A stretch of DNA of 64,000 bases from a bacterium (lineage in GTDB: Bacteria > Patescibacteriota > Saccharimonadia > CAILAD01 > GCA-016700035), in the NCBI GenBank assembly GCA_016700035.1, contig CP064998.1, positions 135,021-199,020 of the forward strand, in the 5' to 3' direction. Position numbers and translations under genes: made by a program. Below, piece by piece: positions 8,470 through 52,873 of the stretch. The notes under the pieces are model-generated. The model was not told the origin of the DNA. It saw only the letters and a program-made list of their open reading frames with translations, and did no database searches. Position 1 is the stretch's first letter; each line of letters opens with the position of its first letter.

Positions 8470-8530
8470 AGTTATATAGATACTTATTAATATACACATA
8501 ACTTATGCTATAACATGAGTTATGTGTATA

Positions 8531-8971
8531 TTAATATTTTTTAATCTCCGCCTTCAAATCTGATTTATTACGAAAATTCATATGAAGGGCCATATAGCGC
8601 ATAAAGGCGTTCATATCGATTGACTTAAGAGTCTCTAAGCAAAGGCGACGAATAAGGTCGGCTTCAATTTCATCTTGTCCACGAATAATAATCTTTTGCT
8701 CGATAGTATCCACAAGATTATCAACATCTATATCAGTAAGATGTTCGGCATCGAGTACTCGGAGAATTGAAATAAATAAAACCGAGCGGCGATAGGGGGA
8801 GGTTTTACTGCTGCTCACCACCTGAATGAATGATAAATCTTGCCGCTCGTAAGTCGTTATGACCTTGCCACAGTCCGCACATCGACGTCTGCGCCATATC
8901 TGGCTACCACCTCGTGTCGAGCGCGTGTTTACCACCTCACTGTGGGGTGACCTGCATTTCATGCAAATCAT
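8531..8971 (-). CDS. nrdR: transcriptional repressor NrdR (zinc ribbon + ATP-cone)
   Basis: MICMKCRSPHSEVVNTRSTRGGSQIWRRRRCADCGKVITTYE matches NrdR N-terminus; about 146 aa. Confidence 0.8.
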   Translation of the reverse strand: MICMKCRSPHSEVVNTRSTRGGSQIWRRRRCADCGKVITTYERQDLSFIQVVSSSKTSPYRRSVLFISILRVLDAEHLTDIDVDNLVDTIEQKIIIRGQDEIEADLIRRLCLETLKSIDMNAFMRYMALHMNFRNKSDLKAEIKKY

Positions 8972-9071: not shown

Positions 9072-12000
9072 GTGATATCAGGTATAATAAGCACAAGTAG
9101 TTTTATGGTGCTCTTACAAGAGGCTGTTACCAAGAATTTTATGAAGAAAAATACAATTGAACATCTGGGGCAAGCCTCAAAAAAAGTCTTAGCTACACCT
9201 GGCAGGTGCTATGTTGCGGCATCTTCTACGCGAAGTCGCACAATTATTCCAGTTCATCAGAAGCTATCTAAAAAATTTGGCTGGTATGAGAAGTGGCACA
9301 AGCATCCTCATCACAAGAAGGTGCATGGGGCGGTGTTGGGTGCTTATCTGATTGCTTTAATTGTATCCTTTAGTATTTTTCAGATGGCAAAGGCTGGAGA
9401 CCTTAATGATGTTTGGGATTTTTCGAATGATACCGGCCTTACGCTATCAGATTCTAACCTGATTGAAGTAAGTAATGGGGTGGTTCGCTTGAAAGCCCAG
9501 AACTACGCTAGCGACGGAAATACAGTGGGTTTGTGGCATAGTGATGAAAATAGTGGATCAACCATGGCTGATAGTTCGGCAAACGGCAATACAGCTACTT
9601 TGGTAGGTTCTCCAACTTGGTCGGTAGGTAATTTAGTAAATGCTATTAATTTTAACGGCACCAGTCAGTATGCTAGCGCGAATGATTCGGCCTCACTCTC
9701 CATAACTGGAAATAATACGCTGGAAAGTTGGGTAAAATTCTCTAACCCATTTAGTGCTGGTTCGTCGCAATATCGACAAACCATACTGGATAAAGGTAGT
9801 TATCAACTTTATTATGATAGCGAGACAGGTCGAGTAACTTATGAGCTCGAAAATAGTGGGGCAAACTCTTGGACTCAGCAAGCTGGGTACGACATGTTAA
9901 ATAATAACGGTGCAAAAATAAAGAAGAGTTGGGATCAAAACGGCAAACAAAATGCACAAGCAACCGTTAAGATGGGCGATAAAATTTATGCAGCTTTGGG
10001 TGGAAGCACGAATGATGCAGAAATATGGGAGTATGATACTTTAACCAATGACTGGAGTCAGGTTGCTGGAGATGGCATCAACTCCAGTTGGAATAACGAA
10101 ATAAGCACCAATGCATATGAATCTGTTTTGTCGTTGGCAACAAATGGTACAGACACTTTGTATGCAGGTCTAGGCACTGGGACTAACGACGGAGATGTTT
10201 GGCGTTTTAAAAGCGGTTCGTGGTTAAAAATAGGTGGTGATGGCATCAATTCAAGTTGGCCAGGTAACTCTTTTAACGGTGTATATTCATTAGCCGTAAA
10301 TGGCTCCACCGTTTGGGCAGGACTTGGCAGCGGTGGTAACGCAGCTCAAGCGTGGGTATGTAATGATTGTGAAAATAATCCTAATTGGGGCGGAAGCCGA
10401 TTAGGTGGCTTTAATGGAACTGCTCGTGGTTGGCCAGCTAACTATGAAATTGTATATGCAATGACGTTGGTTGGAGGCAATCCAGTGGTTGGGTTAGGAG
10501 CAAGTGCGGGTGATGGCGAAGTTTGGCAGTGTACGGCTAATTGTTCTACTCCAGGATCGGCTACGTGGGTTAAACTGGGTGGTGACGGGAGTGGATCTGG
10601 AGGTCAGAGTTGGGGGTCGGCTGCCGAATATGTGCTTACACTTGCATCCAATGGTAATACTATCTATGTTGGCACCGGTGTTACAGCTAATGCAGACACT
10701 GAAGTCTGGTCGTGTGATGTGACGGTTAATTGCACGCCAACTGGTACTGGCTGGACAAGACTTGGTACTAATGCTACTTTTGGTTCGACTAAACTCGGGG
10801 TTTATAGTATCTCGAACAATGGCAGTACATTGTATGTGGGGGTCGGTGGCTCAACTGGAGACGATGAAGTTTGGCGTTATGATGGGTCTTGGACAAAAGT
10901 TGGTGGCGATAATCTTAATAGCGGTTGGAGCTCTACTCATCAATATGCAAGGTCAGTTTTAGTGGATGGCACAACTGTTTATGCAGGCCTGCAAAATACC
11001 ACAGAAGCATATATGTGGAAGTGCTCTAACTGTGATAGTTCACCTAACTGGGGCGGTATACGTATCGGCGGTAAATACGTTAATAAAAGTTGGGGTCAAT
11101 ATAATTTACAAAGTATTGAATCATCGTCAACGGCTGGTGGAAAATTGTATGTTGGTACGGGCAGCACGGTTGCTGGAAATGCAACGGTATGGGAACAAGA
11201 TCCATCTTCTGGAAATTGGACTATGGTTGGGGGTCAAGGTATAAATTCAAGCTGGAGTCCGGATACTTACGAGGCGGTCTGGTCGATGACCAATTATAAA
11301 AATAAACTATATGTGGGCTTGGGAAGTACAGTTGGTGAGGCAGAAGTTTGGCGTTATGATAACCCTGGTTGGACTAAAGTAGCCGATGGTAATCCATCGG
11401 TTGGTAGTGCATGGGGCAATAACTATGAGCAGGTGTTGTCTTTAGGGGTTGCGAACGACAAACTTTATGCTGGGCTAGGTGCAAGTTCTGGTGACGGAGA
11501 AGTTTGGGTTTGTAATGGATGTGATGGAGCAAGTCCAAATTGGGGTGGTGCAGCAATCGGTGGAACAGCAACTGGCAATTGGGGCACAACGCCACATTCT
11601 GCGGTTAGCTCAATGGTTACATATAAAGGATCTTTATATGTGGGCCTGGGTAATTATACTACTGGGCTTGCAGAAGTTTGGCGTTACAGCGGTGCTGGCA
11701 CAAACTGGACAAAAGTTGGCGGAGATGCCATTAACTCTAGTTGGGCAAATAGCCAGTATGAAGATGTGCCAAACTTAGTTGTTTGGAATGACAAGATCAT
11801 TGCTGGACTTGGATCTAGTGGAGTTGGAGCTCCAAATAATGACGCAGAGGTGTGGTCATGTACGGATTGCGACGGAGGTTCACCAACCTGGGCTAAAATC
11901 GGTGGTGATAGTAATGGGTCTGATAATTTGGGCTGGTTGGATGCGAGCAATTATGATAGGGTAAAATCTTTAGCGGTTTATAACGGTGATTTATATGCTG

Positions 12001-15000
12001 GGCTCGGACTGAGTACTGGTGACGGAGAAGTTTGGCGGTTTAACGGATCTGCCTGGTCGCAAGTTGGTGGTGACGGTACAAATAACGGCTGGATAGATTC
12101 TGTTGTCGAAGAAGTCTCGGCAATGATTGTTTATCGTGGAAAGCTGTATGTAGGTACTGGCAACAGCGCAAATAGCGATGCTATGGTCTGGTCATATGGA
12201 GATAACGGCTATTTACAATCTTCGACCACCAGCCAAGATACTAGTTGGCACCACGTGGCAGCTCGCTATAACGGTACCACTATGGAGCTTTTGATAGACG
12301 GCACCAGTGTTGGTACAGCTACTAAAACAGTTACCATGCCGGATGGCAATTTGCCACTTTTGCTTGGTAAATCTTATGGTGGTTTTGACAACGGTCGCTC
12401 ACAAGGGTTTTTTGAAGGAACTTTAGATGAAGTCCGTATTTCAAATATTAATAGAAATTCATTTACTACAAGTCCCTATACGAGCAGTGTGGTTACAGTA
12501 GAGCTAACAGATGCTATACGTAAAAATGGTGTTTGGAATTGGGATTCGCTTATGGCTACAGAAAATCCAGCCGGTGGAACCATTGCTTATCGACTGAGTG
12601 ATGATGATGGAGTGAGCTGGAAGTATTGGGATGGTTCGAGTTGGGCAAATTCAGCGTCGGTCACTCAGGTGAATGCTATATCTGTAATTGATACAAATAT
12701 TGATTCATTTCCAGTGAGCTTTTCGGGTATTAAATGGCAGGCAGTTTTGCAGGGGAACGGCAATCAGCAAGTTTCGGTTGGTGATATATCATTATCTTCG
12801 GTTTCAGATAGTGATGATCCTAGTGTAAATGCATCATCTATTCAGATGCAGAAATCAAACGGTGGTCCTGCGGTAATCAGTAATGGCTGGACTAATGGCT
12901 CAGCGCCATATTTTAGCTGGACGGCAGCCAATGACGCAAAATCCGGGATTAAAGGGTACTGTTTAAGCTTGAGTCAGACACCTTCAGATAATCCAATTAC
13001 AACAAAGGGGATCTTAGGTACTAGCCCAGCTAACACGGGTGGCAATTGTCAATTTGTTGTGACTACTACATCAATTGATCTAGCAACTGCTGGCTATCTA
13101 GCAACACCCCTAACATCATCAAGCTCCCCATATTATCTAAGTATTAAGGCAATAGATAATGCAGGTAATGTTTATAGTACCACTGAACAGTTCCAATTTA
13201 GGTTTGACAATACCAATCCTGCAAATCCGGGCTATATAACTGCTCCATCTGGCTTTATTAACACTAAACAGGCAACATTGACTTGGCCGAGTTCTGGTGG
13301 GACTGCGGCCCAAGATACTAACTCGGGTGTAGCCGGCCTACAATATCGCATTAATGGCGGCACTTGGTATGGAGATAACCATAATGGTAGTCAGGATGCT
13401 ACTGATCTACTATCAAATGATGGTAATTATGCGACAGTTGATCCAATAGATTTTAATGTGCTTGTTGATGGAATTAATACTTTTGAATTTAGGACATGGG
13501 ATAATGCCGGTAATTATACGACAAGCTTTGTTACAGCGGATTTAAAGATAAATACAAATGGTGCACCATCGCAGCCTCAAAATGTTACTGCGAGCCCGAG
13601 TACTAATACGGCCAATGCTTTTGCTTTTAGCTGGGATGCACCCACAACTTTTGTAGGGGACGAGAATAACCTAACTTATTGCTATACGATTAATACGGTA
13701 CCAAATGCAAGTAATTGTACATTTACACCACCAGGTATCACGTCTCTTGGATCGAATGCCTATGCGACTCAACCTGGTGCAAATATTTTCTATGTAGTCG
13801 CTAAAGATGAATCAAACAATATAAATTACACAACATATTCACAGGTGACTTTTACTGCTAATACTGTTGCTCCGGGTATCCCACTAAACTCAGATATAGT
13901 CGATGTTTCTATTAAGTCGACGAGCAATTGGCGCCTTGCTCTCACCTGGGATCCACCGACCAATATTGGTTCAGGTGTTGCTTCATATAAGATCTACCGG
14001 TCAACAAATAATGCCACATTTGTTTATATTGGATCCAGTACGAGTACAACGTATATTGATGCGGGACTTTCCCAGGTTGAATATTATTATCGTGTAAAGG
14101 CATGTGACTCTACTAATAATTGTGGCGCTGAGAGCTCATCAGTTTCAATGATCCCAACGGGTAAATTTACCTCACCAGCTAATCTTACAACAGACCCTAG
14201 TGTAGCTAATATTACAACACGTAGGGCTAGTATTGATTGGTCCACGGATAGACCAAGTGATTCAAAAATTGCAATCGGTACCAAAACTGGTGAGTATAGT
14301 CCTTCTGAGCTCGCTAACTCCGATCAAGTTACCAGTCATATGATTGACTTAACAAATCTCCAAGCTGGTACGACGTATTATTATGTTGCTAAATGGACCG
14401 ATGAGGATGGTAATACAGGTATGAGTTCAGAGCTGTCGTTTACGACCTCTCCAGCTCCAATAGTTAAAGAGGTACAAGCAACTAGGATCGGTTTAAGCTC
14501 TGCTACGATTCAGTTTTCAGTGCGACAAGCCACACAGGCTAAGATTTATTATGGCCAAAGTGAAGGGTTTGGTGGCCTAAAGTTGGTTAATACATCCACG
14601 GCTGAATCTAGTTATACTGTTGATTTAGCAGATCTATCGGATGGGGTAAAATATTTTTACAAAGTTAACAGTGTAGATAGTGAAGGCAATGAATATGAGG
14701 GTAGTGTTCTAACTTTTACAACACCACAAAGGCCAAAGATATCAAATGTTACGCTTCAACCTGTAGAAGGCGAGCCAACAAGCACCCAGCGTGTTGGTTG
14801 GATAACTAATGTGCCTACCACTTCTCAGGTAGTGTACGGTCGTACAGGCGGAGTGACTCAAGAGATTAGTGATTCACAATTGGTTACAGAGCATGAAGTA
14901 GTAATGCGTGACTTGCAGGATGATAGTCAGTATTCACTAATAGTCCAGTCGCGAGATGATGGTGGTAATCTTGCGACAAGTGAGCGTCAGGTTTTTAAGA

Positions 15001-15395
15001 CAGCATTAGACACTAGGCCACCAAAAGTGTCTGATGTAAGTGTAGAAACTACAATTCGTGGAGTGGGTAGCGAGGCTCGTGGTCAATTAGTAATAACCTG
15101 GAAGACGGATGAGCCCTCAACCAGTCAAGTTGCTTTTGGAGAGGGTGCTAGCACTGCATCATTCTCCAGTATGACAACTGAAGATGCTATTTTAACCACT
15201 GAGCACATTGTTATTGTCTCGGATCTATCAACAGCAAAGGTTTACAATGTACAGGCGCTATCAAAGGATAGGTCGGGTAATCAGGTTAAATCTGACCCCC
15301 AGTCTACAATAGTGGGGCGTGCTTCTGACTCTGTACTATCCATTATCTTTAATACTTTACAGAAGATGTTTGGTTTTTTGGGTAAGGAAAGTTAA
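9072..15395 (+). CDS. giant (2107 aa) membrane-anchored surface protein: N-terminal basic tail + single TM, about 14 beta-propeller-like repeats, LamG/concanavalin-like domain, long array of FN3/purple-acid-phosphatase-N-like domains, conserved C-terminal tail
   Basis: single uninterrupted ORF; repeats of type LYxGxG...GDGEVWxC..C....NWGG; LamG-like segment HHVAARYNGTTMELLIDG...LDEVRISN; C-terminal 1000 aa homologous to 46277..50794. The true start may be the internal Met at about 9141. Confidence 0.85.
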   Translation: MISGIISTSSFMVLLQEAVTKNFMKKNTIEHLGQASKKVLATPGRCYVAASSTRSRTIIPVHQKLSKKFGWYEKWHKHPHHKKVHGAVLGAYLIALIVSFSIFQMAKAGDLNDVWDFSNDTGLTLSDSNLIEVSNGVVRLKAQNYASDGNTVGLWHSDENSGSTMADSSANGNTATLVGSPTWSVGNLVNAINFNGTSQYASANDSASLSITGNNTLESWVKFSNPFSAGSSQYRQTILDKGSYQLYYDSETGRVTYELENSGANSWTQQAGYDMLNNNGAKIKKSWDQNGKQNAQATVKMGDKIYAALGGSTNDAEIWEYDTLTNDWSQVAGDGINSSWNNEISTNAYESVLSLATNGTDTLYAGLGTGTNDGDVWRFKSGSWLKIGGDGINSSWPGNSFNGVYSLAVNGSTVWAGLGSGGNAAQAWVCNDCENNPNWGGSRLGGFNGTARGWPANYEIVYAMTLVGGNPVVGLGASAGDGEVWQCTANCSTPGSATWVKLGGDGSGSGGQSWGSAAEYVLTLASNGNTIYVGTGVTANADTEVWSCDVTVNCTPTGTGWTRLGTNATFGSTKLGVYSISNNGSTLYVGVGGSTGDDEVWRYDGSWTKVGGDNLNSGWSSTHQYARSVLVDGTTVYAGLQNTTEAYMWKCSNCDSSPNWGGIRIGGKYVNKSWGQYNLQSIESSSTAGGKLYVGTGSTVAGNATVWEQDPSSGNWTMVGGQGINSSWSPDTYEAVWSMTNYKNKLYVGLGSTVGEAEVWRYDNPGWTKVADGNPSVGSAWGNNYEQVLSLGVANDKLYAGLGASSGDGEVWVCNGCDGASPNWGGAAIGGTATGNWGTTPHSAVSSMVTYKGSLYVGLGNYTTGLAEVWRYSGAGTNWTKVGGDAINSSWANSQYEDVPNLVVWNDKIIAGLGSSGVGAPNNDAEVWSCTDCDGGSPTWAKIGGDSNGSDNLGWLDASNYDRVKSLAVYNGDLYAGLGLSTGDGEVWRFNGSAWSQVGGDGTNNGWIDSVVEEVSAMIVYRGKLYVGTGNSANSDAMVWSYGDNGYLQSSTTSQDTSWHHVAARYNGTTMELLIDGTSVGTATKTVTMPDGNLPLLLGKSYGGFDNGRSQGFFEGTLDEVRISNINRNSFTTSPYTSSVVTVELTDAIRKNGVWNWDSLMATENPAGGTIAYRLSDDDGVSWKYWDGSSWANSASVTQVNAISVIDTNIDSFPVSFSGIKWQAVLQGNGNQQVSVGDISLSSVSDSDDPSVNASSIQMQKSNGGPAVISNGWTNGSAPYFSWTAANDAKSGIKGYCLSLSQTPSDNPITTKGILGTSPANTGGNCQFVVTTTSIDLATAGYLATPLTSSSSPYYLSIKAIDNAGNVYSTTEQFQFRFDNTNPANPGYITAPSGFINTKQATLTWPSSGGTAAQDTNSGVAGLQYRINGGTWYGDNHNGSQDATDLLSNDGNYATVDPIDFNVLVDGINTFEFRTWDNAGNYTTSFVTADLKINTNGAPSQPQNVTASPSTNTANAFAFSWDAPTTFVGDENNLTYCYTINTVPNASNCTFTPPGITSLGSNAYATQPGANIFYVVAKDESNNINYTTYSQVTFTANTVAPGIPLNSDIVDVSIKSTSNWRLALTWDPPTNIGSGVASYKIYRSTNNATFVYIGSSTSTTYIDAGLSQVEYYYRVKACDSTNNCGAESSSVSMIPTGKFTSPANLTTDPSVANITTRRASIDWSTDRPSDSKIAIGTKTGEYSPSELANSDQVTSHMIDLTNLQAGTTYYYVAKWTDEDGNTGMSSELSFTTSPAPIVKEVQATRIGLSSATIQFSVRQATQAKIYYGQSEGFGGLKLVNTSTAESSYTVDLADLSDGVKYFYKVNSVDSEGNEYEGSVLTFTTPQRPKISNVTLQPVEGEPTSTQRVGWITNVPTTSQVVYGRTGGVTQEISDSQLVTEHEVVMRDLQDDSQYSLIVQSRDDGGNLATSERQVFKTALDTRPPKVSDVSVETTIRGVGSEARGQLVITWKTDEPSTSQVAFGEGASTASFSSMTTEDAILTTEHIVIVSDLSTAKVYNVQALSKDRSGNQVKSDPQSTIVGRASDSVLSIIFNTLQKMFGFLGKES

Positions 15396-15396
15396 T

Positions 15397-16344
15397 ATGG
15401 CAATTCAAACACCACAAGCACTGATTAGCCTTGAGCAAGTTGATAAGAAGTTTGTCTTGAGCACAGAGACGGTTCACGCATTAAAGAGTGTAAGTTTTAG
15501 TATTCCTAAAGAATCCTTCTCAATTATTTATGGGCCATCTGGTTCTGGTAAGTCTACTCTACTAAATACTATGGTTGGGCTTGAACCACCGACTGCAGGA
15601 CGAGTGGTAATTGAAGGTCAAGATTTATACAGTCTAAATTCAGATCAACGGGCTAATTTTCGGGCTCGTACGTTAGGGATGGTATATCAAACAAATTATT
15701 GGGTAAATAGTCTTACTGTGCTTGAAAATGTTTGCATGCCTTTATTTCTTGCGGGATATTCAAAACGACAAGCAATATCGGTAGCGTTGGACAGCTTAAC
15801 AATGGTAGGAATGGCGGATTTCACCAAGAAGCGCCCAACGGTATTGTCAGGCGGTCAACAGCAACGTGTTTCGATGGCTCGGGCTATCGTAGCTAATCCT
15901 GAGCTGATAGTAGCCGATGAGCCAACTGGTAACCTGGATACTAAAAATGGTGATATGATTATGAACTTGTTATCAGATCTCAACCATAAGCTTCATAAAA
16001 CAATTATTTTAGTAACACATAATTTAGAATATCTATCCTTAAGCACTCATCGAGTTCAGATTAAAGATGGTACTGTTGTAGAAGATGCCGGTATATATGG
16101 CCTTACTCCAAAACAAAAGAAAGAAAGAATAAAACGCCTCCAGGAGAGTTTTACGCAGAAGGGTGGACCAGCTAAAAGCAATATGACTATTGCTGAAATG
16201 CAAAATCAATTGGCCGGAGGAGATGCAGATGAAGTGGATTCGAATGAATCGGGCTCAAAAATATCTAAGGTGAATGAAGAAAAATTACAGTCAAAAAAAG
16301 GATTAGTTGATGGTGTGTCTAAGAAAAAAGGACATAAATCATGA
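15397..16344 (+). CDS. ABC transporter ATP-binding protein, MacB/LolD/FtsE-like, with Lys/Glu-rich C-terminal extension
   Basis: Walker A GPSGSGKST, signature LSGGQQQRV, Walker B LIVADEPT; start 2 nt after the giant-protein stop. Confidence 0.85.
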   Translation: MAIQTPQALISLEQVDKKFVLSTETVHALKSVSFSIPKESFSIIYGPSGSGKSTLLNTMVGLEPPTAGRVVIEGQDLYSLNSDQRANFRARTLGMVYQTNYWVNSLTVLENVCMPLFLAGYSKRQAISVALDSLTMVGMADFTKKRPTVLSGGQQQRVSMARAIVANPELIVADEPTGNLDTKNGDMIMNLLSDLNHKLHKTIILVTHNLEYLSLSTHRVQIKDGTVVEDAGIYGLTPKQKKERIKRLQESFTQKGGPAKSNMTIAEMQNQLAGGDADEVDSNESGSKISKVNEEKLQSKKGLVDGVSKKKGHKS

Positions 16345-17606
16345 ACTTAGAGCATCATAACCAGCTGAATAGCCCTAAAAAGAAAAACAAAACAAAGTAT
16401 ATTCGTATGCGTATTTTGCTATCGATGGCTTATAGAAATTTACTATTTAAAAAGTTACGTACCTTTTTAACGGTACTGGGTGTTGTTATTGGGATTGGTG
16501 CAATTGTATTCTTGGTTTCACTTGGACTGGGGCTACAGCAGGTTGTGACAAATGAGATTGTAGGTTCTAAGTCGGTTAAAGCAATTGATGTTTCTTCACC
16601 TAAACCAAAAACCATTAAGCTCAATAAAGATGCAGTTAATAAATTCATTAAGTATCCTAAAGTTGATAGTGTGGCACCAACCTTCTCATTTGCGGGTAAA
16701 GTGGTATTTCAGAGTTCAAATACAGATAGTGTCATAAACGGATCTGACCAAAATTATTTTGATCTGAGTTCATTTAAGTTAGTTGAAGGCAAGAAGATTG
16801 CCTTGGAATCTGATGATCAAGTAGTAGTTAACACATCGCTTTTAAAGACCATTGGTATTTCAGATAGCTCTAAAATTATGAATCAGAAGATCAAGCTAGT
16901 TATACCAAAAGAGAAGCGTCAAGAAGCCAGCGGTAATAATGAGGTCAAAGATGATTTTGAAAGAATTATGACTGTTGTGGGGGTGGTTGATTCTGGGTCT
17001 GGTGCTGAGGTATTTACAACAGATACGCTACTTTTGAGTTCTGGTTTTCAGGACTATAATCAAGTAAAGGTGGTTGTCGAAACAAAAGAAGATGTTGCAA
17101 TGGTACGAAAACAAATCGAGGGCCTTGGATTTATCACCGCTTCACCAGTTGATACTTTAGATCAAATTAATCAAGTATTTACTATCCTGAATATTCTCTT
17201 AGCCGGATTTGGTGGTATTGGTATGGTGATTGCCGTATTGGGGATGTTTAATACGCTCACTATCTCGCTTTTAGAGCGTACCAAAGAAATCGGATTGTTA
17301 GTTTCTTTAGGGGCTCGCCGAAAAGATGTGCGGAGATTATTCATTATTGAGGCATTAGCATTATCATTTATGGGCGCATCATTTGGCATTATGGCATCGT
17401 GGGGATTAGGCGGATTAATTAATACGGCTTTATTTAGCCTTGCTAGATCTAGAGGGGTATCAGAAACTTTTTCAGTATTCTATATACCAATATGGTTAAT
17501 TTTGGTTATTCTGGTCTTTACTACTATCGTGGGATTGCTAGTAGTAGCATATCCTGCGCACAGGGCTTCACGTATTAGTCCGATAGATGCATTACGGCAT
17601 GAGTAG
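16341..17606 (+). CDS. ABC transporter permease, FtsX/MacB type (TM1, about 220-aa extracytoplasmic domain, 3 C-terminal TMs)
   Basis: FtsX-family C-terminal motif ISLLERTKEIGLLVSLGARRKDVRRLFIIEAL; ATGA overlap with the ATPase gene. Confidence 0.85.
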   Translation: MNLEHHNQLNSPKKKNKTKYIRMRILLSMAYRNLLFKKLRTFLTVLGVVIGIGAIVFLVSLGLGLQQVVTNEIVGSKSVKAIDVSSPKPKTIKLNKDAVNKFIKYPKVDSVAPTFSFAGKVVFQSSNTDSVINGSDQNYFDLSSFKLVEGKKIALESDDQVVVNTSLLKTIGISDSSKIMNQKIKLVIPKEKRQEASGNNEVKDDFERIMTVVGVVDSGSGAEVFTTDTLLLSSGFQDYNQVKVVVETKEDVAMVRKQIEGLGFITASPVDTLDQINQVFTILNILLAGFGGIGMVIAVLGMFNTLTISLLERTKEIGLLVSLGARRKDVRRLFIIEALALSFMGASFGIMASWGLGGLINTALFSLARSRGVSETFSVFYIPIWLILVILVFTTIVGLLVVAYPAHRASRISPIDALRHE

Positions 17607-19807: not shown

Positions 19808-20669
19808 CGAAAATAAGTTAGTTGCTTTTGTTGGTCCGACGGCTTCTGGTAAAACGCAGGCAGCACTAGATTTAGCTAAGATAATACCTTCGGAGATTAT
19901 ATGTGCTGATTCGCGTACGGTTTATAAAGAGCTTGATATAGGTACAGCAAAGCCTACGGCAGAAGACCAGTCTCGAATTCCTCATTATGGGCTAGATTTA
20001 GTTTCACCAGGTGAAAAATATTCGGTTGCTGATTTTGTGATATGCGCAGAGGGTGCCTTACGCGATATTTGGGCACGAAATAAAACGGCAATTCTGGTCG
20101 GTGGAAGTGGCTTATATATAGATGCAATTTTGTTTGGTTATAAATTTCGTAATCAGGCTCGAGACATAAAAGACTGGGAAAAATATAGTAATGACGAACT
20201 TATGCAGTTAGCTAAAAAGCTTTATCCGGGCGCCATAAACACAATTGATGTAAAAAATACTAGGAGATTACAGCAACTTATACTTAGAGGCCCTACAAAT
20301 ACCTCAGATCGTGAGTCATTAAAATATGAAGTAAAGATTATTGGAATTGACCCAGGTTTAGAAAATCTACAGATAAGAATTGAAAAGCGGACGGACAATA
20401 TGTTGGGCCAAGGATTTGTTCAAGAATGTGATAACCTTATAAAAAAGTATGGTAAGGACTGTCCGACACTACAAACAACTGGTTACTCGGCAGTGGCTGA
20501 ATATCTAACTGGTAAGCAAGACTTAGATACGATGCGGAGGCAAATTATTACTGATACAAAAAGATTAGCCAAGAAGCAGCGTACTTGGTTTAGGCGTAAT
20601 TCATTGATAACTTGGGTGCGAGACGAGAATACGGCAATCGATATGGCAGTCTCCTACTTATCGAAATAA
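19773..20669 (+). CDS. miaA: tRNA dimethylallyltransferase
   Basis: P-loop VAFVGPTASGKT, IICADSRTVYKELDIGTAKPT. Confidence 0.85.
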   Translation: MSQVRLNNANSSENKLVAFVGPTASGKTQAALDLAKIIPSEIICADSRTVYKELDIGTAKPTAEDQSRIPHYGLDLVSPGEKYSVADFVICAEGALRDIWARNKTAILVGGSGLYIDAILFGYKFRNQARDIKDWEKYSNDELMQLAKKLYPGAINTIDVKNTRRLQQLILRGPTNTSDRESLKYEVKIIGIDPGLENLQIRIEKRTDNMLGQGFVQECDNLIKKYGKDCPTLQTTGYSAVAEYLTGKQDLDTMRRQIITDTKRLAKKQRTWFRRNSLITWVRDENTAIDMAVSYLSK

Positions 20670-20686
20670 CAGGGTACAATAATAGT

Positions 20687-22042: not shown

Positions 22043-22749
22043 CGGCAAAGAGAGTCTCAATTTTATATCTATATCCATACGAGATGAATACTTATGGTGA
22101 CTGGGGCAATGTGTGTGTCTTGCAGAAGCGTTTAGAATGGCGCGGATGTCAGGTAGACGTTATCAAGCACCATCCAGGCTCCAGGTTATCAAGGCGTCCT
22201 GATATTATATTTTTTGGAGGCGGTCAGGATAGTGGACAGAGTCTTATTCTGGATGATTTACATAAGCAGGCGCCAAGATTGCGCGAGTGGATAGAGGATG
22301 GAGTGGCTACACTGGCAATATGTGGTGGTTATCAACTGCTTGGACGAGAGTTTATTACGGCAACTGGAGAGAATTTGGAAGGTGTTGGGGTGTTTAATAT
22401 TACAACTCAAGCTCAACCTGGTCGGTTAATTGGTAATGTCGTACTGACGAGTGATAGATTTGGGTCTATTGTTGGTTTTGAGAATCATTCCGGTAGAACC
22501 TTTTTAGATGGCGATACGGAGCCATTTGGGGTGGTAGATAAGGGTAGTGGTAATAATGGTGAAGATAAAAAAGAGGGGATTATTACTAACTCTGCGATTG
22601 GTACATATCTACATGGCCCACTACTGCCGAAAAACCCTCAAGTAGCGGACTGGTTGATTGCTCATGCCCTAGGCGTTTCGCATAAAGAATTAGTTCAATT
22701 GCCGGATCAGTTTGTTATACAGGCTAGGTTAGTTGCTACTAGACGATAG
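22039..22749 (+). CDS. gatD: CobB/CobQ-type glutamine amidotransferase, GatD-like partner of MurT
   Basis: GATase1 nucleophile elbow AICGGYQLLG; size about 236 aa; gene order murT-gatD. Confidence 0.65.
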   Translation: MTAKRVSILYLYPYEMNTYGDWGNVCVLQKRLEWRGCQVDVIKHHPGSRLSRRPDIIFFGGGQDSGQSLILDDLHKQAPRLREWIEDGVATLAICGGYQLLGREFITATGENLEGVGVFNITTQAQPGRLIGNVVLTSDRFGSIVGFENHSGRTFLDGDTEPFGVVDKGSGNNGEDKKEGIITNSAIGTYLHGPLLPKNPQVADWLIAHALGVSHKELVQLPDQFVIQARLVATRR

Positions 22750-46276: not shown

Positions 46277-49200
46277 ATGGCCAACAAGAAAAAGAATAAT
46301 CAGCACGAGTATGTCAATTCAGTCGACGGTTTGCGTCGGGCTGAGCCTGTCTTACGGGTGGAAAGCTCGAGTGTGGTTGAGGTAGATGAAGTCACGCGGT
46401 TGGAGTTAATCGGGAAATGGCTACGAAAGACTGTACCATCTATAATCCTCCAACTAAAATCTATAGCTCTCCAGCTAAAAAGCATTGTGAGTACTGTAAG
46501 GCTACATATCTTGGAAATTTTTACTAGGATTACTGCTCGTATCCCTAGAGTTAGACTGCCAAGATTTGCTGTGAGTAACAGAGTGAGAAGTGTTGTAGCG
46601 AGTACATCATTAGTATTTATGGTGTTATTGATGTTCTTTAATCTGGGTATTGGAAATATTGCTCAAGCCTTTGACACTTTTAGTCAGTCAGATTGGAGTG
46701 GAGGAGTTGGGGCGAGTCCAGTTAATCAATACAGTGAAAAAGATAATGTTGTAACTACTACACCAAATAGAATAGACATAGATAGTCAGCAGAATACTAA
46801 TTGGTGCGCGACAGCAAATTGCAATAACCAGTGGCAATATAGAAAGAAGGTTATATTATCCGACTACAGCGGTAATATAGTGGCTCAGAGCAGTCTGCAG
46901 TATGAGGTTACTCTAGACTACACGGCAAATATGAAATCTGATTTTAGTGATATTAGGTTCGTAAATGAGCTGGGTGGAGCCGATATACCGTTTACTTTAA
47001 TCTATAAAACAGACAGTCAATCGGCTAAATACATTGTAAAAATATCAGTAAGTGGCGGGGTGGCAGACAAAGAGTTGTATGTTTACTATGGAAACTCTTC
47101 GGCGGTAGGCTTCGATAACCGTACCGGCACTATGGACTGGGCGGATGACTTTAGGAGTGGCACATGTGCTAAGATCCTGAATTGTAGCCAGGTGGGTCTG
47201 GTAGTTGGCAATGGAGAGCTGTCGTCTATACAGGATCATCAGTCGATCGAAGCAGCCCTATCTGGTAAGACGTTTGACAGGGCGATAAACAGGGTCTTTG
47301 AATATGATTTTCAATATGATTTTTCTAGCCTGACTGACTGTAGCGATGGTGGTTATAGTATGGCATCTAACTTCGGAGGTAATACTTATGACAAGTATTC
47401 GAACTTAGGTACATACATACGTAGAGGTAGCTGTGACCGTGATGTTTTCGGTAGTTTTAATTATGTCTCAATGAGAGATGATTCTATTGGTTACGAAAAT
47501 GGTGGCTGGCTTGAAAATTGGGATAATCCGAGTCCAAAAGCTAGTTTTAATAGCCTTGAGTGGGCACGACTTCGGATGGTGAGCTATCCAGGGAGTGGAA
47601 TGGATTTTTTTCTTAGTAAAGATAATGGTAAGACATTTAATAAGATAAATATAGCTCCGTATAGTTCGAGTAATTTAACTTTTGATATACACAGGTTTGA
47701 ATTGTATACATCTAGCAATGCAAGTAGTCTATCCCTAAAGATAAGAAATATGCAGGCGTATTCGATACCTTCTCTGGCCGCACCGCCAGTTTATCTGGGC
47801 GTGGAAGAAAAACTCGGTGGCTACACGGGGGTGATCGCGTCAGCCGAGATAGACCTTAGTGCCTCGGGGGCTTACTTTGGAGCGATTACGGCCAGCACGG
47901 TTGGTAGTGGTAAAGTTAGCTTCCTAATCTCTGGATCTGCAACGGCTGGTGGTACAAAAACATTTGCCGAAGCTGGTAGTTGTGGCTGGATAAATAATGG
48001 CGCGCTAGCTAGTGCTAGCAAATGTCTAGAGCCAAATACAAGGTACGTAAAATATTTTGCGGTATTGCAAGATGATGATGGTGTGCGTGACTTATCTGTG
48101 ACTAATATCGGCCTAGAATACGGCATGGATAATACCGACCCGAATGGGGCGACAAACATTATCGCCAAACGAGATAGCGTGTTGGGGGCACAAATCACAA
48201 CGGGCTGGATAAATACGATACCATACTTTAGCTGGAGCACGGCTACGGATAATCCTGGTGGTAGTGGTATTGGTGGATATTGTGTGTATTTTGGTACGGA
48301 TCAGACGGCAGATATGGCTACGACATCCGGGTTGTTGCCTAGCAGTGGTCCGGTGAATACAAATGGTCTATGCCATTATGCGACAGCCGATGCTAGCCTT
48401 AGTTTGTCTGATATTAATTTGCAGGGTAGCCTAGACTCTGGGCAAACTTACTACTTTAAGATTCGATCCTTCGACCAGTCTGGCAATATGTCAGGTGAGG
48501 AAGTATACCAGCTAGGCTATGATACCGAAGAGCCTGAGTTTAATACCTTGGCAACAGGACCAAATGGCGCTGTGAATTCACCGCTTGCTAATATCAACTG
48601 GCTAACGACACCACCGGCAAGTGCGGATGATAGTGGAGGGTCTGGCATCGCGGGTGTCAGATATTGTGTCAATTATTTTGGTAGTGTGCTCCCGGAATGT
48701 AATATCGAAACTGGAGGTGGCGAAGATACCCCGGACTGGATATGGTTTGGGGCTTCGGGCAATCCGGGCGGACTATATGATTTATCGGATACCATTCCAT
48801 TTACAGATGGAGGATTTCAGATATCCACGAACGCACTTTCTCATTTGACGAATGAAGGCATAAATTATGCCTATGTCGTATTGCTTGATAGAGCTGGTAA
48901 TGTTGGCGGTGGTGGCGTGGGTTATATTAATACCACCCAACAGACTGCTTCACCACCCCGAAATCTAGTAGTATCTCCGCCTATTAGCAGTCAGAACCAG
49001 TTCTCTTTTAGCTGGGAGGCGCCTTCCAGCCTGACCGGTCCAGCTAGTGAGGTAGATTACTGCTGGACTGTAAACGCTCCAATATTGCAGGACGCTAGCA
49101 ATTGTAATTGGACTGGCAAGGGAATTACCCAGCTGGCGAATGGTGCTTATGCGACGCAGCAGGGGGAGAATACGATGTATGTTATGGCGAAAGATCAATC

Positions 49201-50794
49201 GCAGAACTTCTCGAATATGAATGTGGCAACGGTAAAATTTACAGCATTTACGACAGCACCAGGTGCTCCGCAAAATCTTGAGCTGTCTGATGTGTCTACT
49301 CGGGCGACTGCGAGCTGGAAAATTGCCCTAAGCTGGAGCGCGCCACAGCTGCCGGGTTCCGGTGTGACAGGCTATAAGATTTATAGGTCTACCAATAATG
49401 TAGATTTTACTGAAGTCGGCACCACGTCAAATACCAATCTTAGCTTTATAGATTCTGGTCTCTCGCAAACTGACTACTATTATTATGTAAAAGCCTGCGA
49501 TAGCGCTAATAGCTGTGGTGTAGCCAGTAATACTGAGATAGAGTATCCGAGTGGTCGATATACCACACCAGCTCGACTAACCGATGACACCGATCAGCCG
49601 AAAATCCGAGATATCGGTACGCGTAAAGCTACAGTTTATTGGTTTACTGACCGAGCAAGTGATTCTAAGATAGCTTATGGTACCGCGCCTGGACAGTATT
49701 TCCCTGAAGAGGTCGGTAATTCGGCACAAATTTCTACACATGTTGTAAATCTTACAAATCTTGAGCCTGGTAAAACATATTATTATGTAGCTCGGTGGAC
49801 AGATGAAGATGGCAATATGGGGGTTTCCACAGAGAGATCTTTCACAACGCTACCAGCGCCAACCGTAAAGGAAGTTTCGGCATCAAATCTGACCATAGGT
49901 TCTGCTGTAGTTAATTTTACAACTGATAATGCACATAAGGCTAATGTATATTTTGGAGCCAATGATGCCTTTGGTGGCGTGAAGAGTGTTAATACTTCAA
50001 CATCATCTTCTAGCTATAGTTTAAGTTTGGATAATCTGCGGGATGGGCAGAAATACTACTTTAAGATCAGTACGGTCGATGCCGATGGCTATGAATATCA
50101 GGGAGATATTTATAGCTTTACCACACCAGCTCGTCCACGGATTATAAATTTGCGCTTTGATACGGTCGAAGGTGAGCCAAGTAGCACCCAGAAGATTGTT
50201 TGGACGACCAATGTTCCGACTACTAGTGAGGTGGTGTATGGTCTGAGGGATGGTAAGCAGATCGAAGCCGTAGACTCGGTGCTTGTGGTGGAGCATGAGA
50301 TGGTGGTTCGTGGACTTGAAGACGATGCGGATTATCAGCTAGTTGCCCGCTCGCGCGATGCTGCTGGCAATCTGGCAATATCTGATCGGCAATCTTTCCA
50401 GACTGCCGAGGACACGCGTGCTCCAAAGATTAGTAACTTGAAGATTGAGACAGATATTCGTGGATCCGGAGGCGAAGCTCGAGGCCAGGTGATTGTGTCT
50501 TGGCGCACCGATGAGCCGGCGACCAGCCAAGTAGCCTTTGCTAAGGGTCGCACCGATGAGCTAAGTAATCGATCACAACAAGATACACGTCTAACGACTG
50601 AGCATGTGGTGGTGGTGTCAGATCTGACGACCTCGAGTATTTATCAGGTTCAGGCGGTCTCATCTGATAAGGCTGGTAATGAGTCATCTTCGGATGCTCA
50701 AACTGCAATCATTGGTCGTGGTACAGACAGTATTTTTAGCGTTATCTTTAATGCCCTGCAAGCAATCTTCGGCTTTGGGGATTCTAGTATATGA
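46277..50794 (+). CDS. giant (1505 aa) membrane-anchored surface protein, paralog of 9072..15395: long N-terminal cytoplasmic tail + TM, DUF2341-like domain, shared C-terminal FN3/PAP-N-like array and conserved C-terminal tail
   Basis: C-terminal 1000 aa alignable to giant #1 (for example YKIYRSTNN..F..GTTSNTNLSFIDSGLSQTDYYYYVKACDSANSCG vs YKIYRSTNNATFVYIGSSTSTTYIDAGLSQVEYYYRVKACDSTNNCG); DUF2341-like WQYRKKVIL...DIRFVN...YVYYGN. Confidence 0.85.
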   Translation: MANKKKNNQHEYVNSVDGLRRAEPVLRVESSSVVEVDEVTRLELIGKWLRKTVPSIILQLKSIALQLKSIVSTVRLHILEIFTRITARIPRVRLPRFAVSNRVRSVVASTSLVFMVLLMFFNLGIGNIAQAFDTFSQSDWSGGVGASPVNQYSEKDNVVTTTPNRIDIDSQQNTNWCATANCNNQWQYRKKVILSDYSGNIVAQSSLQYEVTLDYTANMKSDFSDIRFVNELGGADIPFTLIYKTDSQSAKYIVKISVSGGVADKELYVYYGNSSAVGFDNRTGTMDWADDFRSGTCAKILNCSQVGLVVGNGELSSIQDHQSIEAALSGKTFDRAINRVFEYDFQYDFSSLTDCSDGGYSMASNFGGNTYDKYSNLGTYIRRGSCDRDVFGSFNYVSMRDDSIGYENGGWLENWDNPSPKASFNSLEWARLRMVSYPGSGMDFFLSKDNGKTFNKINIAPYSSSNLTFDIHRFELYTSSNASSLSLKIRNMQAYSIPSLAAPPVYLGVEEKLGGYTGVIASAEIDLSASGAYFGAITASTVGSGKVSFLISGSATAGGTKTFAEAGSCGWINNGALASASKCLEPNTRYVKYFAVLQDDDGVRDLSVTNIGLEYGMDNTDPNGATNIIAKRDSVLGAQITTGWINTIPYFSWSTATDNPGGSGIGGYCVYFGTDQTADMATTSGLLPSSGPVNTNGLCHYATADASLSLSDINLQGSLDSGQTYYFKIRSFDQSGNMSGEEVYQLGYDTEEPEFNTLATGPNGAVNSPLANINWLTTPPASADDSGGSGIAGVRYCVNYFGSVLPECNIETGGGEDTPDWIWFGASGNPGGLYDLSDTIPFTDGGFQISTNALSHLTNEGINYAYVVLLDRAGNVGGGGVGYINTTQQTASPPRNLVVSPPISSQNQFSFSWEAPSSLTGPASEVDYCWTVNAPILQDASNCNWTGKGITQLANGAYATQQGENTMYVMAKDQSQNFSNMNVATVKFTAFTTAPGAPQNLELSDVSTRATASWKIALSWSAPQLPGSGVTGYKIYRSTNNVDFTEVGTTSNTNLSFIDSGLSQTDYYYYVKACDSANSCGVASNTEIEYPSGRYTTPARLTDDTDQPKIRDIGTRKATVYWFTDRASDSKIAYGTAPGQYFPEEVGNSAQISTHVVNLTNLEPGKTYYYVARWTDEDGNMGVSTERSFTTLPAPTVKEVSASNLTIGSAVVNFTTDNAHKANVYFGANDAFGGVKSVNTSTSSSSYSLSLDNLRDGQKYYFKISTVDADGYEYQGDIYSFTTPARPRIINLRFDTVEGEPSSTQKIVWTTNVPTTSEVVYGLRDGKQIEAVDSVLVVEHEMVVRGLEDDADYQLVARSRDAAGNLAISDRQSFQTAEDTRAPKISNLKIETDIRGSGGEARGQVIVSWRTDEPATSQVAFAKGRTDELSNRSQQDTRLTTEHVVVVSDLTTSSIYQVQAVSSDKAGNESSSDAQTAIIGRGTDSIFSVIFNALQAIFGFGDSSI

Positions 50795-51597
50795 GTCAGG
50801 CACTAGTAGAGTTTCAAAAGGTGTCGCGTGATTTTAGGGCGGTTGATGGCACGATAAGTGTTTTAAAAGATATAAACTTTAAGGTGGAGACTGGTAGCTT
50901 TACGATTATCTATGGACCTTCTGGTAGTGGCAAGACGACGATTTTAAATATGATCTTGGGGCTTTTACCGCCAACCAAAGGGGATGTTGTGGTAAGCGGA
51001 GAGAAGTTATATGGTTTGACACAAGATGGTCGTGCAAAATTCAGGGCAGCCCATTATGGTATTGTGAGTCAGGTTAATAACTGGATATTGAGTATGAATG
51101 TACAGGAGAATGTGGCACTTCCGCTGTATCTCTCGGGAACTCCACGGCATAAGGCAATGCGAAAAGCAGCCGATAGTATTGAGCGGGTAGGACTGACGAA
51201 ATATATGCATTATAACCCAGCGGTGTTGTCGGTTGGTCAACAGCAACGTATTTCGATGGCGCGGGCGACAGTTAAAACGCCACGGCTTTTAATTGCTGAT
51301 GAGCCTACTGGTAACCTCGATACGACAAATGGCGACATGATAATGCAGCTCATGACTAGCTTTAGAAATCATGAGAATACAACCGTAATACTGGTGACTC
51401 ATAATTTGAGTTATCTTTCATTGAGTAGTCATCGACTCTTCTTGAAAGACGGCGTTTTATCAGTGGATGAGGGTGGCTTCCAGCTAGAAGAAGAGCGTCG
51501 ACGTATGTTGATGACAAGCTTTTTGGAGGCTAATAAAACGGACACTGCTCAACAGGGCAAGGCGGCGTCTGTGAAGAAAGGCGGCAAGCGTGGCTGA
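50791..51597 (+). CDS. ABC transporter ATP-binding protein, MacB/LolD-like (paralog of 15397..16344)
   Basis: Walker A GPSGSGKTT, LSVGQQQRI, LLIADEPT; ATGA overlap with the giant-protein stop. Confidence 0.85.
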   Translation: MSQALVEFQKVSRDFRAVDGTISVLKDINFKVETGSFTIIYGPSGSGKTTILNMILGLLPPTKGDVVVSGEKLYGLTQDGRAKFRAAHYGIVSQVNNWILSMNVQENVALPLYLSGTPRHKAMRKAADSIERVGLTKYMHYNPAVLSVGQQQRISMARATVKTPRLLIADEPTGNLDTTNGDMIMQLMTSFRNHENTTVILVTHNLSYLSLSSHRLFLKDGVLSVDEGGFQLEEERRRMLMTSFLEANKTDTAQQGKAASVKKGGKRG

Positions 51598-52873
51598 GCG
51601 TAACCATAAAACCAATGAGAAAGCGAATGAATTGAAGGTTATGCCTAGGCTAAAAAAGCACCGATTTAAGAGAGAAGGCGTGGTGGCAACATCCATTCTG
51701 GTGCGTATGGCGGCCCAGAATCTTTTCTTTAAGAGGCTACGAACTACGCTGACCATTCTTGGCGTGGTGATTGGTATTGGTGCGGTGATATTTTTGCTCT
51801 CGTTTGGGTATGGTTTGCAGAATTTAGTTAGCCGTCAAGTGATTGGGGCAAAATCGGTTAAGAGTATTGATGTCAATAAGCCACGCTCGACAGCCATTAA
51901 ATTTGATGGTGAAAATATTACTCGGCTCAAAAATATTGGTTCGGTGGAATCGGTGGCTCGCGTTTTTACCGAAGCTGCTAAAGTAAAATCGGGTAGCTCA
52001 CAGATTGATTCGGTGCTGTTTGGCGTTGATTCAGAATATCTAAACCTAGCCTCCGTACGCGTGGTGACTGGCAAAAGTTTATTGGCGGGCGGCTCGACGG
52101 ATGAGACCCTAATCAATACTTCACTTGCAAGAGCAGTGGGCTTACCACAAGGCGATGAGGTACTCGGCAAGGTGATTAATATGAGTTTTGATGTTGTGCA
52201 GGCTGATGGGGTCAAGAAAACTGTTCAGAAGGACATGAGAATTATCGGCCTTGTTGAAGGGAGTGGGGGTGCTGAAGTTTTTGTGCGTAGTCAGCTATTT
52301 ATTGATAATGGTGCCCAAGATGCCGGTCAAGTAAAGATACTGGCAACTGATCGGGCGGCTGTACCGCAGATTCGTAAGGAGATTGAAAGTATTGGCTTCG
52401 CTACCGCGTCACCACTTGATACTCTAGACCAGATTTCTCAGGTGTTCGGTTTGCTACAGATGGTCTTTATTGGTTTTGGAGGGATTGGTATGGTGATTGC
52501 GATACTCGGGATGTTTAACACGCTGACTATTTCTTTATTGGAGAGGACTCGGGAAATTGGGCTCCTGATTGAGTTTGGTGCGCGACGACGAGATATTAAA
52601 CGGCTATTTATCATTGAGTCTTTAATGTTATCAATATTGGGTGGCCTAATTGGGTTAATTAGTGCCTTCATGCTCGGTAAGATCGCTGATGTGGCAATTA
52701 GTAGCTTTGCGCGTAGTCGAGGAGTGCAGGAGTCGGTGTCAGCTTTTATGGTGACACCTCAGTTAGCAATTATGACGTTGGTATTGAGCGCATTGTTTGG
52801 GCTGGCGGTTGTTTATTTTCCGGCGCGTCGGGCATCACGAATTGATCCGATTGACGCATTGCGTTACGAATAA
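51590..52873 (+). CDS. ABC transporter permease, FtsX/MacB type (paralog of 16341..17606)
   Basis: ISLLERTREIGLLIEFGARRRDIKRLFIIESL motif; 8-nt overlap with the ATPase gene. Confidence 0.85.
   Translation: MAERNHKTNEKANELKVMPRLKKHRFKREGVVATSILVRMAAQNLFFKRLRTTLTILGVVIGIGAVIFLLSFGYGLQNLVSRQVIGAKSVKSIDVNKPRSTAIKFDGENITRLKNIGSVESVARVFTEAAKVKSGSSQIDSVLFGVDSEYLNLASVRVVTGKSLLAGGSTDETLINTSLARAVGLPQGDEVLGKVINMSFDVVQADGVKKTVQKDMRIIGLVEGSGGAEVFVRSQLFIDNGAQDAGQVKILATDRAAVPQIRKEIESIGFATASPLDTLDQISQVFGLLQMVFIGFGGIGMVIAILGMFNTLTISLLERTREIGLLIEFGARRRDIKRLFIIESLMLSILGGLIGLISAFMLGKIADVAISSFARSRGVQESVSAFMVTPQLAIMTLVLSALFGLAVVYFPARRASRIDPIDALRYE

Follow-up and report, generated by a model that had tools for sequence, protein, structure and literature searches.

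A recurrent gene cassette that joins giant secreted proteins to a MacB/FtsX-type ABC ATPase and permease in Saccharibacteria

This study concerns a three-gene cassette that occurs twice in a 64,000-nucleotide (nt) stretch of a Saccharimonadia genome (assembly GCA_016700035.1, contig CP064998.1, positions 135,021 to 199,020 of the forward strand), hereafter called the window. Both cassettes lie on the + strand and encode, in order, a giant secreted protein, an ATP-binding cassette (ABC) ATPase and a permease with MacB_PCD and FtsX domains. Among the Saccharibacteria, which are very small and attach themselves to other bacteria, the cassette is widespread, and hundreds of species have conserved it. 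From the two-way linkage of the genes, their tight junctions, their co-duplication, the type VII character of the ABC pair and the anatomy of the giants, we conclude that the giant and the ABC pair are very probably dedicated functional partners. The components are of known kinds; the giant partner class and a candidate docking or sorting signal at its C-terminus are new. Gene order, co-duplication and protein anatomy together point to a hitherto undescribed machine that would hold, release or move giant surface proteins. Full-text searches of the literature found no description of a giant plus ABC cassette in the library searched, in agreement with the original prediction, made from the DNA sequence of the window, which knew of no system with this architecture.

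Much of bacterial diversity lies in the Patescibacteria, whose cultured members live attached to host cells. To our knowledge, little has been learned about their surface machinery beyond type IV pili. Some of the largest genes of a genome of about 1 Mb lie in the cassette, which is tied to an energy-consuming membrane complex.

Linkage of the giant and ABC genes across genomes

Linkage was determined from both sides of the cassette. For the giant side, an alignment of the last 320 amino acids (aa) of the giant was compared with one genome per species; 572 stretches matched, of which the 80 best loci were retained. An ATPase gene followed by a MacB-type permease gene was found directly downstream of the giant in 78 of these 80 loci. 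One of the two remaining loci ran into a contig end, and the other was the first of two tandem giants sharing one ABC pair. Complete cassettes numbered 76 among the best 80 loci, with median gaps of 1.5 nt between giant and ATPase and −4 nt between ATPase and permease. For the permease side, a permease alignment was compared with metagenome contigs, which yielded 57 loci with enough upstream DNA. A giant C-terminus was located just upstream of the ATPase in 56 of them; in the sole exception (L136, 19-1029, − strand), the giant's place before an otherwise typical ATPase and permease pair was taken by a small membrane protein and an IS30-like transposase. Gene-neighbourhood profiles had been put forward as a check by the original prediction, and synteny with tail-bearing giants was conserved in both directions, in Saccharibacteria and beyond.

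Homologs of the cassette proteins came from Candidatus Saccharibacteria/Saccharimonadales genomes. The three-gene order was kept even in two distant Patescibacteria relatives, with 35% and 30% identity in the C-terminal module of the giant; in these, 1−2 nt separated the giant from an ABC_tran gene, which was followed by a MacB_PCD/FtsX gene. One of the two is a non-Saccharibacteria Patescibacteria assembly. The permease of the relative with 30% identity (L163, 2023-4029) was enlarged to 668 aa, versus about 420 aa. Genes flanking the cassette were common to the closest relatives only; because they differ beyond these relatives, we conclude that the conserved unit consists of exactly three genes.

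When giants, ATPases and permeases were each assigned to type 1 or type 2, after the two copies in the window, the three assignments were concordant in 69 of 71 cassettes, indicating that the cassette was duplicated and diverged as a unit. In three loci (L071, 598-12364; L118, 603-11185; L121, 1-11224), two or three tandem tail-bearing giants preceded a single ATPase and permease. Because a single ABC pair follows several giants there, one pump can serve more than one of them.

The two cassettes in the window

Open reading frames (ORFs) and Pfam matches agreed in placing the order giant, ABC ATPase, FtsX-type permease twice in the window (Table 1). Giant1 and giant2 were 44% identical over 919 aa, including the extreme C-terminus (BLASTP), the two ATPases were 49% identical to each other, and the two permeases 46%. 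Each gene of one copy thus has its paralog in the other, at 44−49% identity, and the cassette is duplicated as a whole. Alignment with orthologs indicated that the likely true start of giant1 is the ATG at 9141, which gives a protein of 2084 aa.

Inspection of the sequence showed that three of the four junctions are as originally described: in copy 1, the TAA stop of giant1 (15393-15395) is separated by a single base from the ATPase ATG at 15397, and the ATPase and permease genes overlap in an ATGA at 16341; in copy 2, the giant2 and ATPase genes overlap in an ATGA at 50791. The fourth, at 51590, is not the ATGA overlap that had been claimed. There the start codon of the permease is a GTG, and the overlap with the ATPase stop amounts to 8 nt (GTGGCTGA). 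The remaining structural claims of the original prediction were borne out: duplication of the cassette as a whole, a C-terminal region alignable between the giants to its very end, and N-terminal halves that differ, with a modelled propeller and a Laminin_G_3 domain in giant1 and DUF2341 in giant2.

The ABC ATPase and permease

Each permease has four hydrophobic segments, the first of which is followed by about 220 extracytoplasmic residues. In copy 1, the first transmembrane segment (TM1) precedes a MacB-like extracytoplasmic core (16461-17123), and an FtsX domain containing TM2-4 follows (17208-17582). A profile of the permease family was compared with solved structures. The first match was YtrF of Bacillus subtilis (9o9x, E = 5e-40), strongest over the TM2-4 region, followed by MacB, the Spr0694-0695-type permease (5xu1), LolF/LolE and, weakly, FtsX. 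Because the catalytic motifs of the ATPase (Walker A, Q-loop, signature, Walker B with its catalytic Glu, H-loop) are conserved across 77 members of the family, ATP turnover is expected. The signature of the copy 2 ATPase is LSVGQ rather than LSGGQ, a variant found in 3 of the 77 members; LSTGE and LSIGE also occur. The ATPase of copy 1 carries a low-complexity C-terminal extension.

A four-TM permease with a large extracytoplasmic domain between TM1 and TM2, an FtsX domain over TM2-4 and an intact cognate ATPase place the pair among the type VII ABC systems (MacB/FtsX superfamily). The Pfam domains and structural matches thus support the assignment to the MacB/FtsX type made from the sequence at first.

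The pair was then compared with the NCBIfam models of named systems. The best permease models by score were MacB, ADOP and LolCE, all below cut-off. Because every equivalog score was far below its cut-off, we conclude that the pair belongs to a distinct type VII ABC subfamily with no ortholog among the named systems, and that it is not an ordinary FtsEX or LolCDE ortholog, which would have counted against the original prediction. An FtsEX ortholog was rejected on the scores of both subunits: 187 and 184 bits for the ATPases against FtsE (cut-off 264.85) and 24−31 bits for the permeases against the FtsX models (cut-offs 225−255). LolCDE was rejected because the permeases scored 61 and 71 bits with lolCE (cut-off 362) and the ATPases 206 and 181 bits with LolD (cut-off 307.75), no extra gene is conserved beside the cassette, and the giants have no lipobox Cys. 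MacAB-TolC was rejected because the MacB model (cut-off 966) gave 94 and 84 bits with the permeases and 170 and 154 bits with the ATPases, the ATPase is a separate polypeptide, and only three genes are conserved. The equivalogs YbbA and DevA were likewise far below cut-off, and the ATPases reached 155−166 bits, again below cut-off, with the lactococcin-972-type ABC model TIGR03608. A BceAB-type resistance transporter, which has a ten-TM permease of about 650 aa and a two-component system, was rejected because the permeases of the cassette have 421 and 427 aa, four TM segments and other neighbours. An anti-phage defence system was rejected from a PADLOC analysis, in which the giants had no match and the ATPase and permease had only generic ABC/LolE-TM matches.

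The shared C-terminal stalk and tail

The C-terminal region common to both giants is the most conserved part of giant1, and it closes with three tandem domains resembling fibronectin type III (FN3) and the purple acid phosphatase N-terminal (PAP-N) domain. An AlphaFold2 model of the last 320 aa of giant1 had a predicted local distance difference test score (pLDDT) of 88. It contained three FN3-like beta-sandwiches (pLDDT about 90) and then a terminal helix, residues 2084-2103, modelled with lower confidence than the sandwiches. The closest structures to this model in a Foldseek search of the PDB were tandem FN3 arrays, such as those of receptor stalks; the searches with this model and with that of the propeller gave no functional lead in the PDB.

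The terminal helix corresponds to a tail with the nearly invariant pattern D-S-[VI]-[LF]-S-I-I-F-N-[TA]-L-Q-x-[MI]-F-G-[FL], usually located 0−5 residues from the stop. The tail is amphipathic and moderately hydrophobic (moment 0.42−0.43, mean hydrophobicity 0.40; family mean z = 2.2 versus shuffles), and within the window it was matched in giant1 and giant2 only.

In a library of 1.84 billion representatives at 50% identity, 3581 clusters matched the C-terminal module at E ≤ 1e-30. Of the best 150 of these clusters, 75 ended in the tail; these 75 ranged from 693 to 6321 aa and had differing N-terminal regions. Because proteins of such different lengths share them, the stalk and tail are a common base under the giants. 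The giant C-terminus, with a mean pairwise identity of 0.60, is more conserved than its ABC partners, the ATPase (0.53) and the permease (0.48). In a protein database clustered at 90% identity, all matches to the module were at most 547 aa long, and several shared an internal start, MVAKDE..., even on long contigs. Full-length giants were present in the 50% library; the short entries look like an artefact of gene calling or database truncation.

The N-terminal halves of the giants

Pfam identified Laminin_G_3, fn3 and Pur_ac_phosph_N domains in giant1 and DUF2341, fn3 and Pur_ac_phosph_N domains in giant2. By hydropathy, each giant has a single hydrophobic segment, which lies close to the N-terminus, and the C-terminus is free of such segments. 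In giant1 the segment is directly preceded by a His/Trp-rich motif with the family consensus RPHxhLxxkxxWYxrWHxWkxHkhVH. Giant1 was the sole match to this motif in the window, and in about 2.2 Mb of fetched loci nearly all matches to its hidden Markov model (HMM) were giants. It matched no known extended-signal motif in Pfam or NCBIfam. Giant2 of the window lacks the motif; type-2 orthologs elsewhere, which have 1400−1660 aa, carry it.

A (V/A)-x-A sequence after the hydrophobic segment is conserved, and in type 1 (64 orthologs) it is followed by DLxDxWDFS; type-2 giants have the conserved mature start WxQxDWSGG. Because (V/A)-x-A fits the −3/−1 rule, cleavage of a signal peptide is predicted. 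The giant1 segment is probably the h-region of a signal peptide followed by a signal peptidase I site, with GDLNDVWDFS as the mature start. This makes it doubtful that the giants are membrane-anchored, as had been supposed: a single N-terminal segment followed by a conserved (V/A)-x-A resembles a cleavable signal peptide. The mature giants had no TM segment, lipobox Cys, sortase signal or wall-binding domain by Pfam, NCBIfam and hydropathy.

An AlphaFold2 model of giant1 residues 110-743 consisted of propeller blades (pLDDT mostly 85−93); the region before the propeller, first read as LamG-like, was poorly modelled (mostly <60). The propeller region had no Pfam family match and, by Foldseek against the PDB, resembled generic propellers only. 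Giant1 had no sequence relative in the PDB. Orthologs of giant1, 1950−2160 aa long, could be aligned end to end in 49 species, with a column consensus of 0.55−0.65 in the N-terminal half versus 0.65−0.79 in the C-terminal half. Because the proteins of 49 species align over their full length, giant1 is a conserved ortholog and not a variable adhesin, and the term adhesin used for it in the original prediction is not supported for this protein of about 2050 aa. Its conservation and size have suggested an S-layer role as a candidate function.

Proposed action of the ABC pair on the giant

We tentatively favor, as having not quite an even chance of being correct, the reading that the ABC pair is a type VII mechanotransducer whose dedicated outside partner is the C-terminal stalk and tail of the giant, held at the membrane surface. 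The giant, presumably exported by Sec because it has a Sec-type N-terminal signal segment, would carry a long signal peptide containing the family-specific His/Trp-rich cytoplasmic motif and would be cut at (V/A)-x-A. What remains after cleavage would be a head, a conserved stalk of tandem FN3 domains and, at the very end, an amphipathic helix that finishes in ...IFG[FL]. The ATPase and the permease of MacB/FtsX type, translated together, would form the mechanotransducer, presumably as E2X2, and the stalk and tail would contact this complex from outside. The complex would hold the giant at the membrane surface, rather than release it, and ATP hydrolysis would switch or move its state. Nothing would be transported across the membrane, and the logic would be that of FtsEX-EnvC/PcsB, YbbAP-TesA and NosDFY. 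Because the giants have no TM segment, lipobox, sortase signal or recognized wall-binding domain, a partnership through stalk and tail would also explain how they are retained on the cell. In PMC12646458, each of E. coli's four ABC systems of type VII is described with an extracytoplasmic partner (EnvC, LolA, MacA and TesA).

Several observations weigh against this reading. In a small sample of 123 non-redundant cassettes with an effective sequence number (Neff) of about 100, co-variation between the last 130 aa of the giant and the permease, measured as mutual information with average product correction (MI-APC), reached a top value of 0.33, and the giant-ATPase control reached 0.34. Tandem giants with one ABC pair fit an enzyme-substrate relation at least equally well. 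FtsX is a more remote relative of the permease than MacB, YtrF and Lol, systems that extract substrates or expel them. The amphipathic tail helix could bind the membrane unaided, and the argument from anchoring would be weaker if the N-terminal segment, whose cleavage is predicted, stays in the membrane. Finally, the cultured oral strain Southlakia epibionticum ML1 has a MacB-type pair and no Pur_ac_phosph_N protein. This pair, SEML1_0053/0054, has no upstream giant and shows a growth defect in some passages in transposon sequencing (Tn-seq) tables. It is a putative counterpart only, and the ABC pair may thus work without a giant in some lineages. SEML1_0890, an FN3 protein named essential in the Southlakia Tn-seq, was rejected as a relative; it has 195 aa and is unrelated to the cassette.

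The main rival is that the pair acts like Lol: a MacB-type pump would pull the tail helix, or an uncleaved N-terminal segment, from the outer leaflet of the cell's own membrane, for release or self-protection. The freed giant would assemble on the wall or surface, or a membrane-active tail would be kept off its producer, and enzyme and substrate would form no stable complex. The best scores of the permease, with the MacB, ADOP and LolCE models and the YtrF and MacB structures, lie with families known for outer-leaflet extraction. The two or three giants per ABC pair in L071, L118 and L121 suit extraction, as does a tail that is both moderately hydrophobic and amphipathic, and the ATPase also resembles TIGR03608. 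In the lactococcin-972 system, a secreted protein gene is likewise followed by an ABC pair. However, no acceptor or downstream factor gene is conserved beside the cassette, the giant once freed would have no other recognizable way to remain on the cell, and a catalytic accessory is not usually coupled so tightly in translation to a protein of 2000 aa. We regard extraction as rather unlikely.

It is improbable that the genes are merely co-transcribed, the ABC pair being an ordinary pump, for efflux or for resistance to antimicrobial peptides, or a YtrEF-like wall system, that is co-regulated with the giant and does not act on it. Relatives of the permease are annotated as "ABC-type antimicrobial peptide transport system permease", and the closest solved relative, YtrF, comes from a cell-wall stress operon in which a transporter function is only putative. 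The similar pair without a giant in Southlakia and co-variation no greater than that of the control, at the Neff stated above, are also as co-transcription would have it. The linkage data make it unlikely: adjacency was kept from 85% to 30% identity while all other neighbors changed, the three genes duplicated and diverged jointly, junctions of 1 nt or overlaps were conserved in the 76 cassettes, and the giant was upstream in nearly all permease-selected loci, whereas pure co-regulation is rarely so strict both ways.

Giant adhesins are classic type I secretion substrates, and a conserved, uncleaved-looking C-terminal element adjoins the ABC genes here, but movement of the giant across the cytoplasmic membrane by a transporter that reads this tail as its signal is very improbable, because the permease has the four-TM MacB/FtsX fold and not that of a six-TM HlyB-type transporter, and because each giant carries, at the N-terminus, a hydrophobic segment of Sec type and a site that looks like a cleavage site; nor is a membrane-fusion protein gene conserved nearby. 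No transmembrane path for substrates is known in type VII ABC systems, and the export of giants by the ABC pair, one of the roles first proposed, is unlikely for such a system.

Returning to the holding model, its most far-reaching form is that the tail ...IIGRxSDSVLxIIFNxLxxxFG[FL], possibly with the His/Trp motif, is a new sorting signal and the MacB-type pair its sorting or actuating machine, that is, a Patescibacteria-specific, sortase-independent, ATP-powered mounting for giants of 700 to >6000 aa. We consider this extension doubtful. If it were true, an epibiont could move or switch its largest surface structures with cytoplasmic ATP. If the ABC pair does hold or actuate the giants, they would be a new and very large partner class for type VII mechanotransducers, a new C-terminal sorting or docking signal would be defined, and there would be a genetically testable handle on how the host-contacting surface is built. 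The many "FN3 domain-containing hypothetical proteins" and "antimicrobial peptide ABC permeases" that stand uncharacterized in metagenome annotations would also gain a role.

Comparison with known systems

FtsEX, with its partners EnvC, PcsB, CwlO and RipC, resembles the cassette in having an ATPase and a four-TM permease with an extracytoplasmic domain. In both, the proposed use of ATP hydrolysis is work on a protein outside the cell membrane and not solute transport. In contrast to FtsX, the cassette permease has a larger extracytoplasmic domain of the MacB_PCD type; the partner is not a coiled-coil hydrolase activator but an FN3 and propeller protein of 1500−2100 aa that ends in an amphipathic tail; and the partner gene is built into the operon.

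YtrEF of B. subtilis (PDB 9o9x), the source of the closest solved permease relative, is a MacB-type pair from a single-membrane envelope that is linked to the cell wall and not to a defined transported solute. In the papers retrieved, the ytr operon is listed with a repressor, ABC subunits and a small membrane protein; a giant secreted protein is not among its products.

MacAB-TolC and LolCDE-LolA share the MacB_PCD and FtsX architecture. They expel or extract substrates at the outer face of the membrane, each with a dedicated extracytoplasmic partner, as stated in PMC12646458. Unlike these systems, the cassette has no MacA/HlyD-type adaptor or LolA-like gene conserved near it, and its giants have no lipobox.

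The genes nosD-nosF-nosY are ordered as outside protein, ATPase and permease, as in the cassette. NosY is an ABC-2-type permease, not FtsX-type. In NosDFY and YbbAP-TesA, an ABC complex has a neighboring gene for an outside protein that is held and actuated; for the cassette, such contact is presumed. The partners in those two systems are not giants but a beta-helix protein or small enzymes, and Pfam and PDB searches found no homology of the giants to them. YbbAP-TesA is itself of type VII, according to PMC12646458.

The type I secretion of RTX/LapA-type adhesins also involves a giant surface protein, a conserved uncleaved C-terminal element and a genetic tie to an ABC transporter. The cassette differs in having a four-TM MacB/FtsX transporter that is not HlyB-type, no membrane-fusion protein or outer-membrane factor, and a Sec-type signal on the giants.

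Features and surroundings of the cassettes

Coordinates are collected in Table 1.

Table 1 Features of the two cassettes and of the trans-translation genes in the window
Feature	Position	Strand	Remarks
Giant1	9072..15395	+	ORF; 2107 aa counted from first GTG
His/Trp-rich cytoplasmic motif of giant1	9243..9326	+	IIPVHQKLSKKFGWYEKWHKHPHHKKVH; conserved in orthologs
Single hydrophobic segment of giant1	9327..9395	+	Ends A-K-A; hydropathy
Beta-propeller repeat region of giant1	9936..12101	+	Repeat ...GGDGINSSW...LYAGLG..GDGEVW...
Laminin_G_3 (concanavalin-like lectin) domain of giant1	12141..12452	+	Pfam PF13385, E = 4e-13
C-terminal region common to both giants	12729..15320 (giant1); from ~48047 (giant2)	+	BLASTP
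C-terminal tail of giant1	15321..15377	+	ASDSVLSIIFNTLQKMFGF; predicted amphipathic helix; five further residues before stop
ATPase copy 1	15397..16344	+	315 aa; Pfam ABC_tran E = 1e-32
Permease copy 1	16341..17606	+	421 aa; Pfam MacB_PCD E = 3e-22, FtsX E = 2e-19
tmRNA gene and smpB	42702-43105 and 54404-54859	−
Giant2	46277..50794	+	ORF; 1505 aa
Hydrophobic segment of giant2	46592-46669	+	Ends A-Q-A
DUF2341 of giant2	46940-47164	+	Pfam
C-terminal tail of giant2	50720-50776	+	GTDSIFSVIFNALQAIFGF; tail HMM E = 1e-21
ATPase copy 2	50791..51597	+	268 aa; Pfam ABC_tran E = 1e-29
Permease copy 2	51590..52873	+	427 aa; Pfam MacB_PCD E = 2.5e-18, FtsX E = 1.4e-16

The cassettes are surrounded by housekeeping genes of a small genome, including those for ribosomal protein L25, NrdR, threonyl-tRNA synthetase (ThrRS), MiaA, MurT/GatD, an aldolase, SmpB, arginyl-tRNA synthetase (ArgRS), tRNAs and transfer-messenger RNA (tmRNA). 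The immediate neighbors are tRNA-Val and ThrRS at copy 1 and the aldolase at copy 2. Promoter and terminator scans gave counts at chance level, and operon boundaries were not delimited by them. In the space that separates the convergent genes for L25 and NrdR, at 8488-8533, a perfect 20-bp inverted repeat is followed by a T-run, a probable bidirectional terminator a short way upstream of cassette 1.

Upstream of giant2 is a divergent S8 subtilase gene (44284-46113, − strand), whose product is a possible processing protease. It was rejected as a fourth conserved cassette gene, since L149 was the only other locus in which a homolog lay close to the cassette. The tmRNA gene, with a tag ending ...PALAPAFA, and smpB lie about 11 kb apart and flank cassette 2. 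A MurT/GatD pair, for lipid II amidation, is located at 20612-22749, and its presence suggests a Gram-positive-type wall without an outer membrane.

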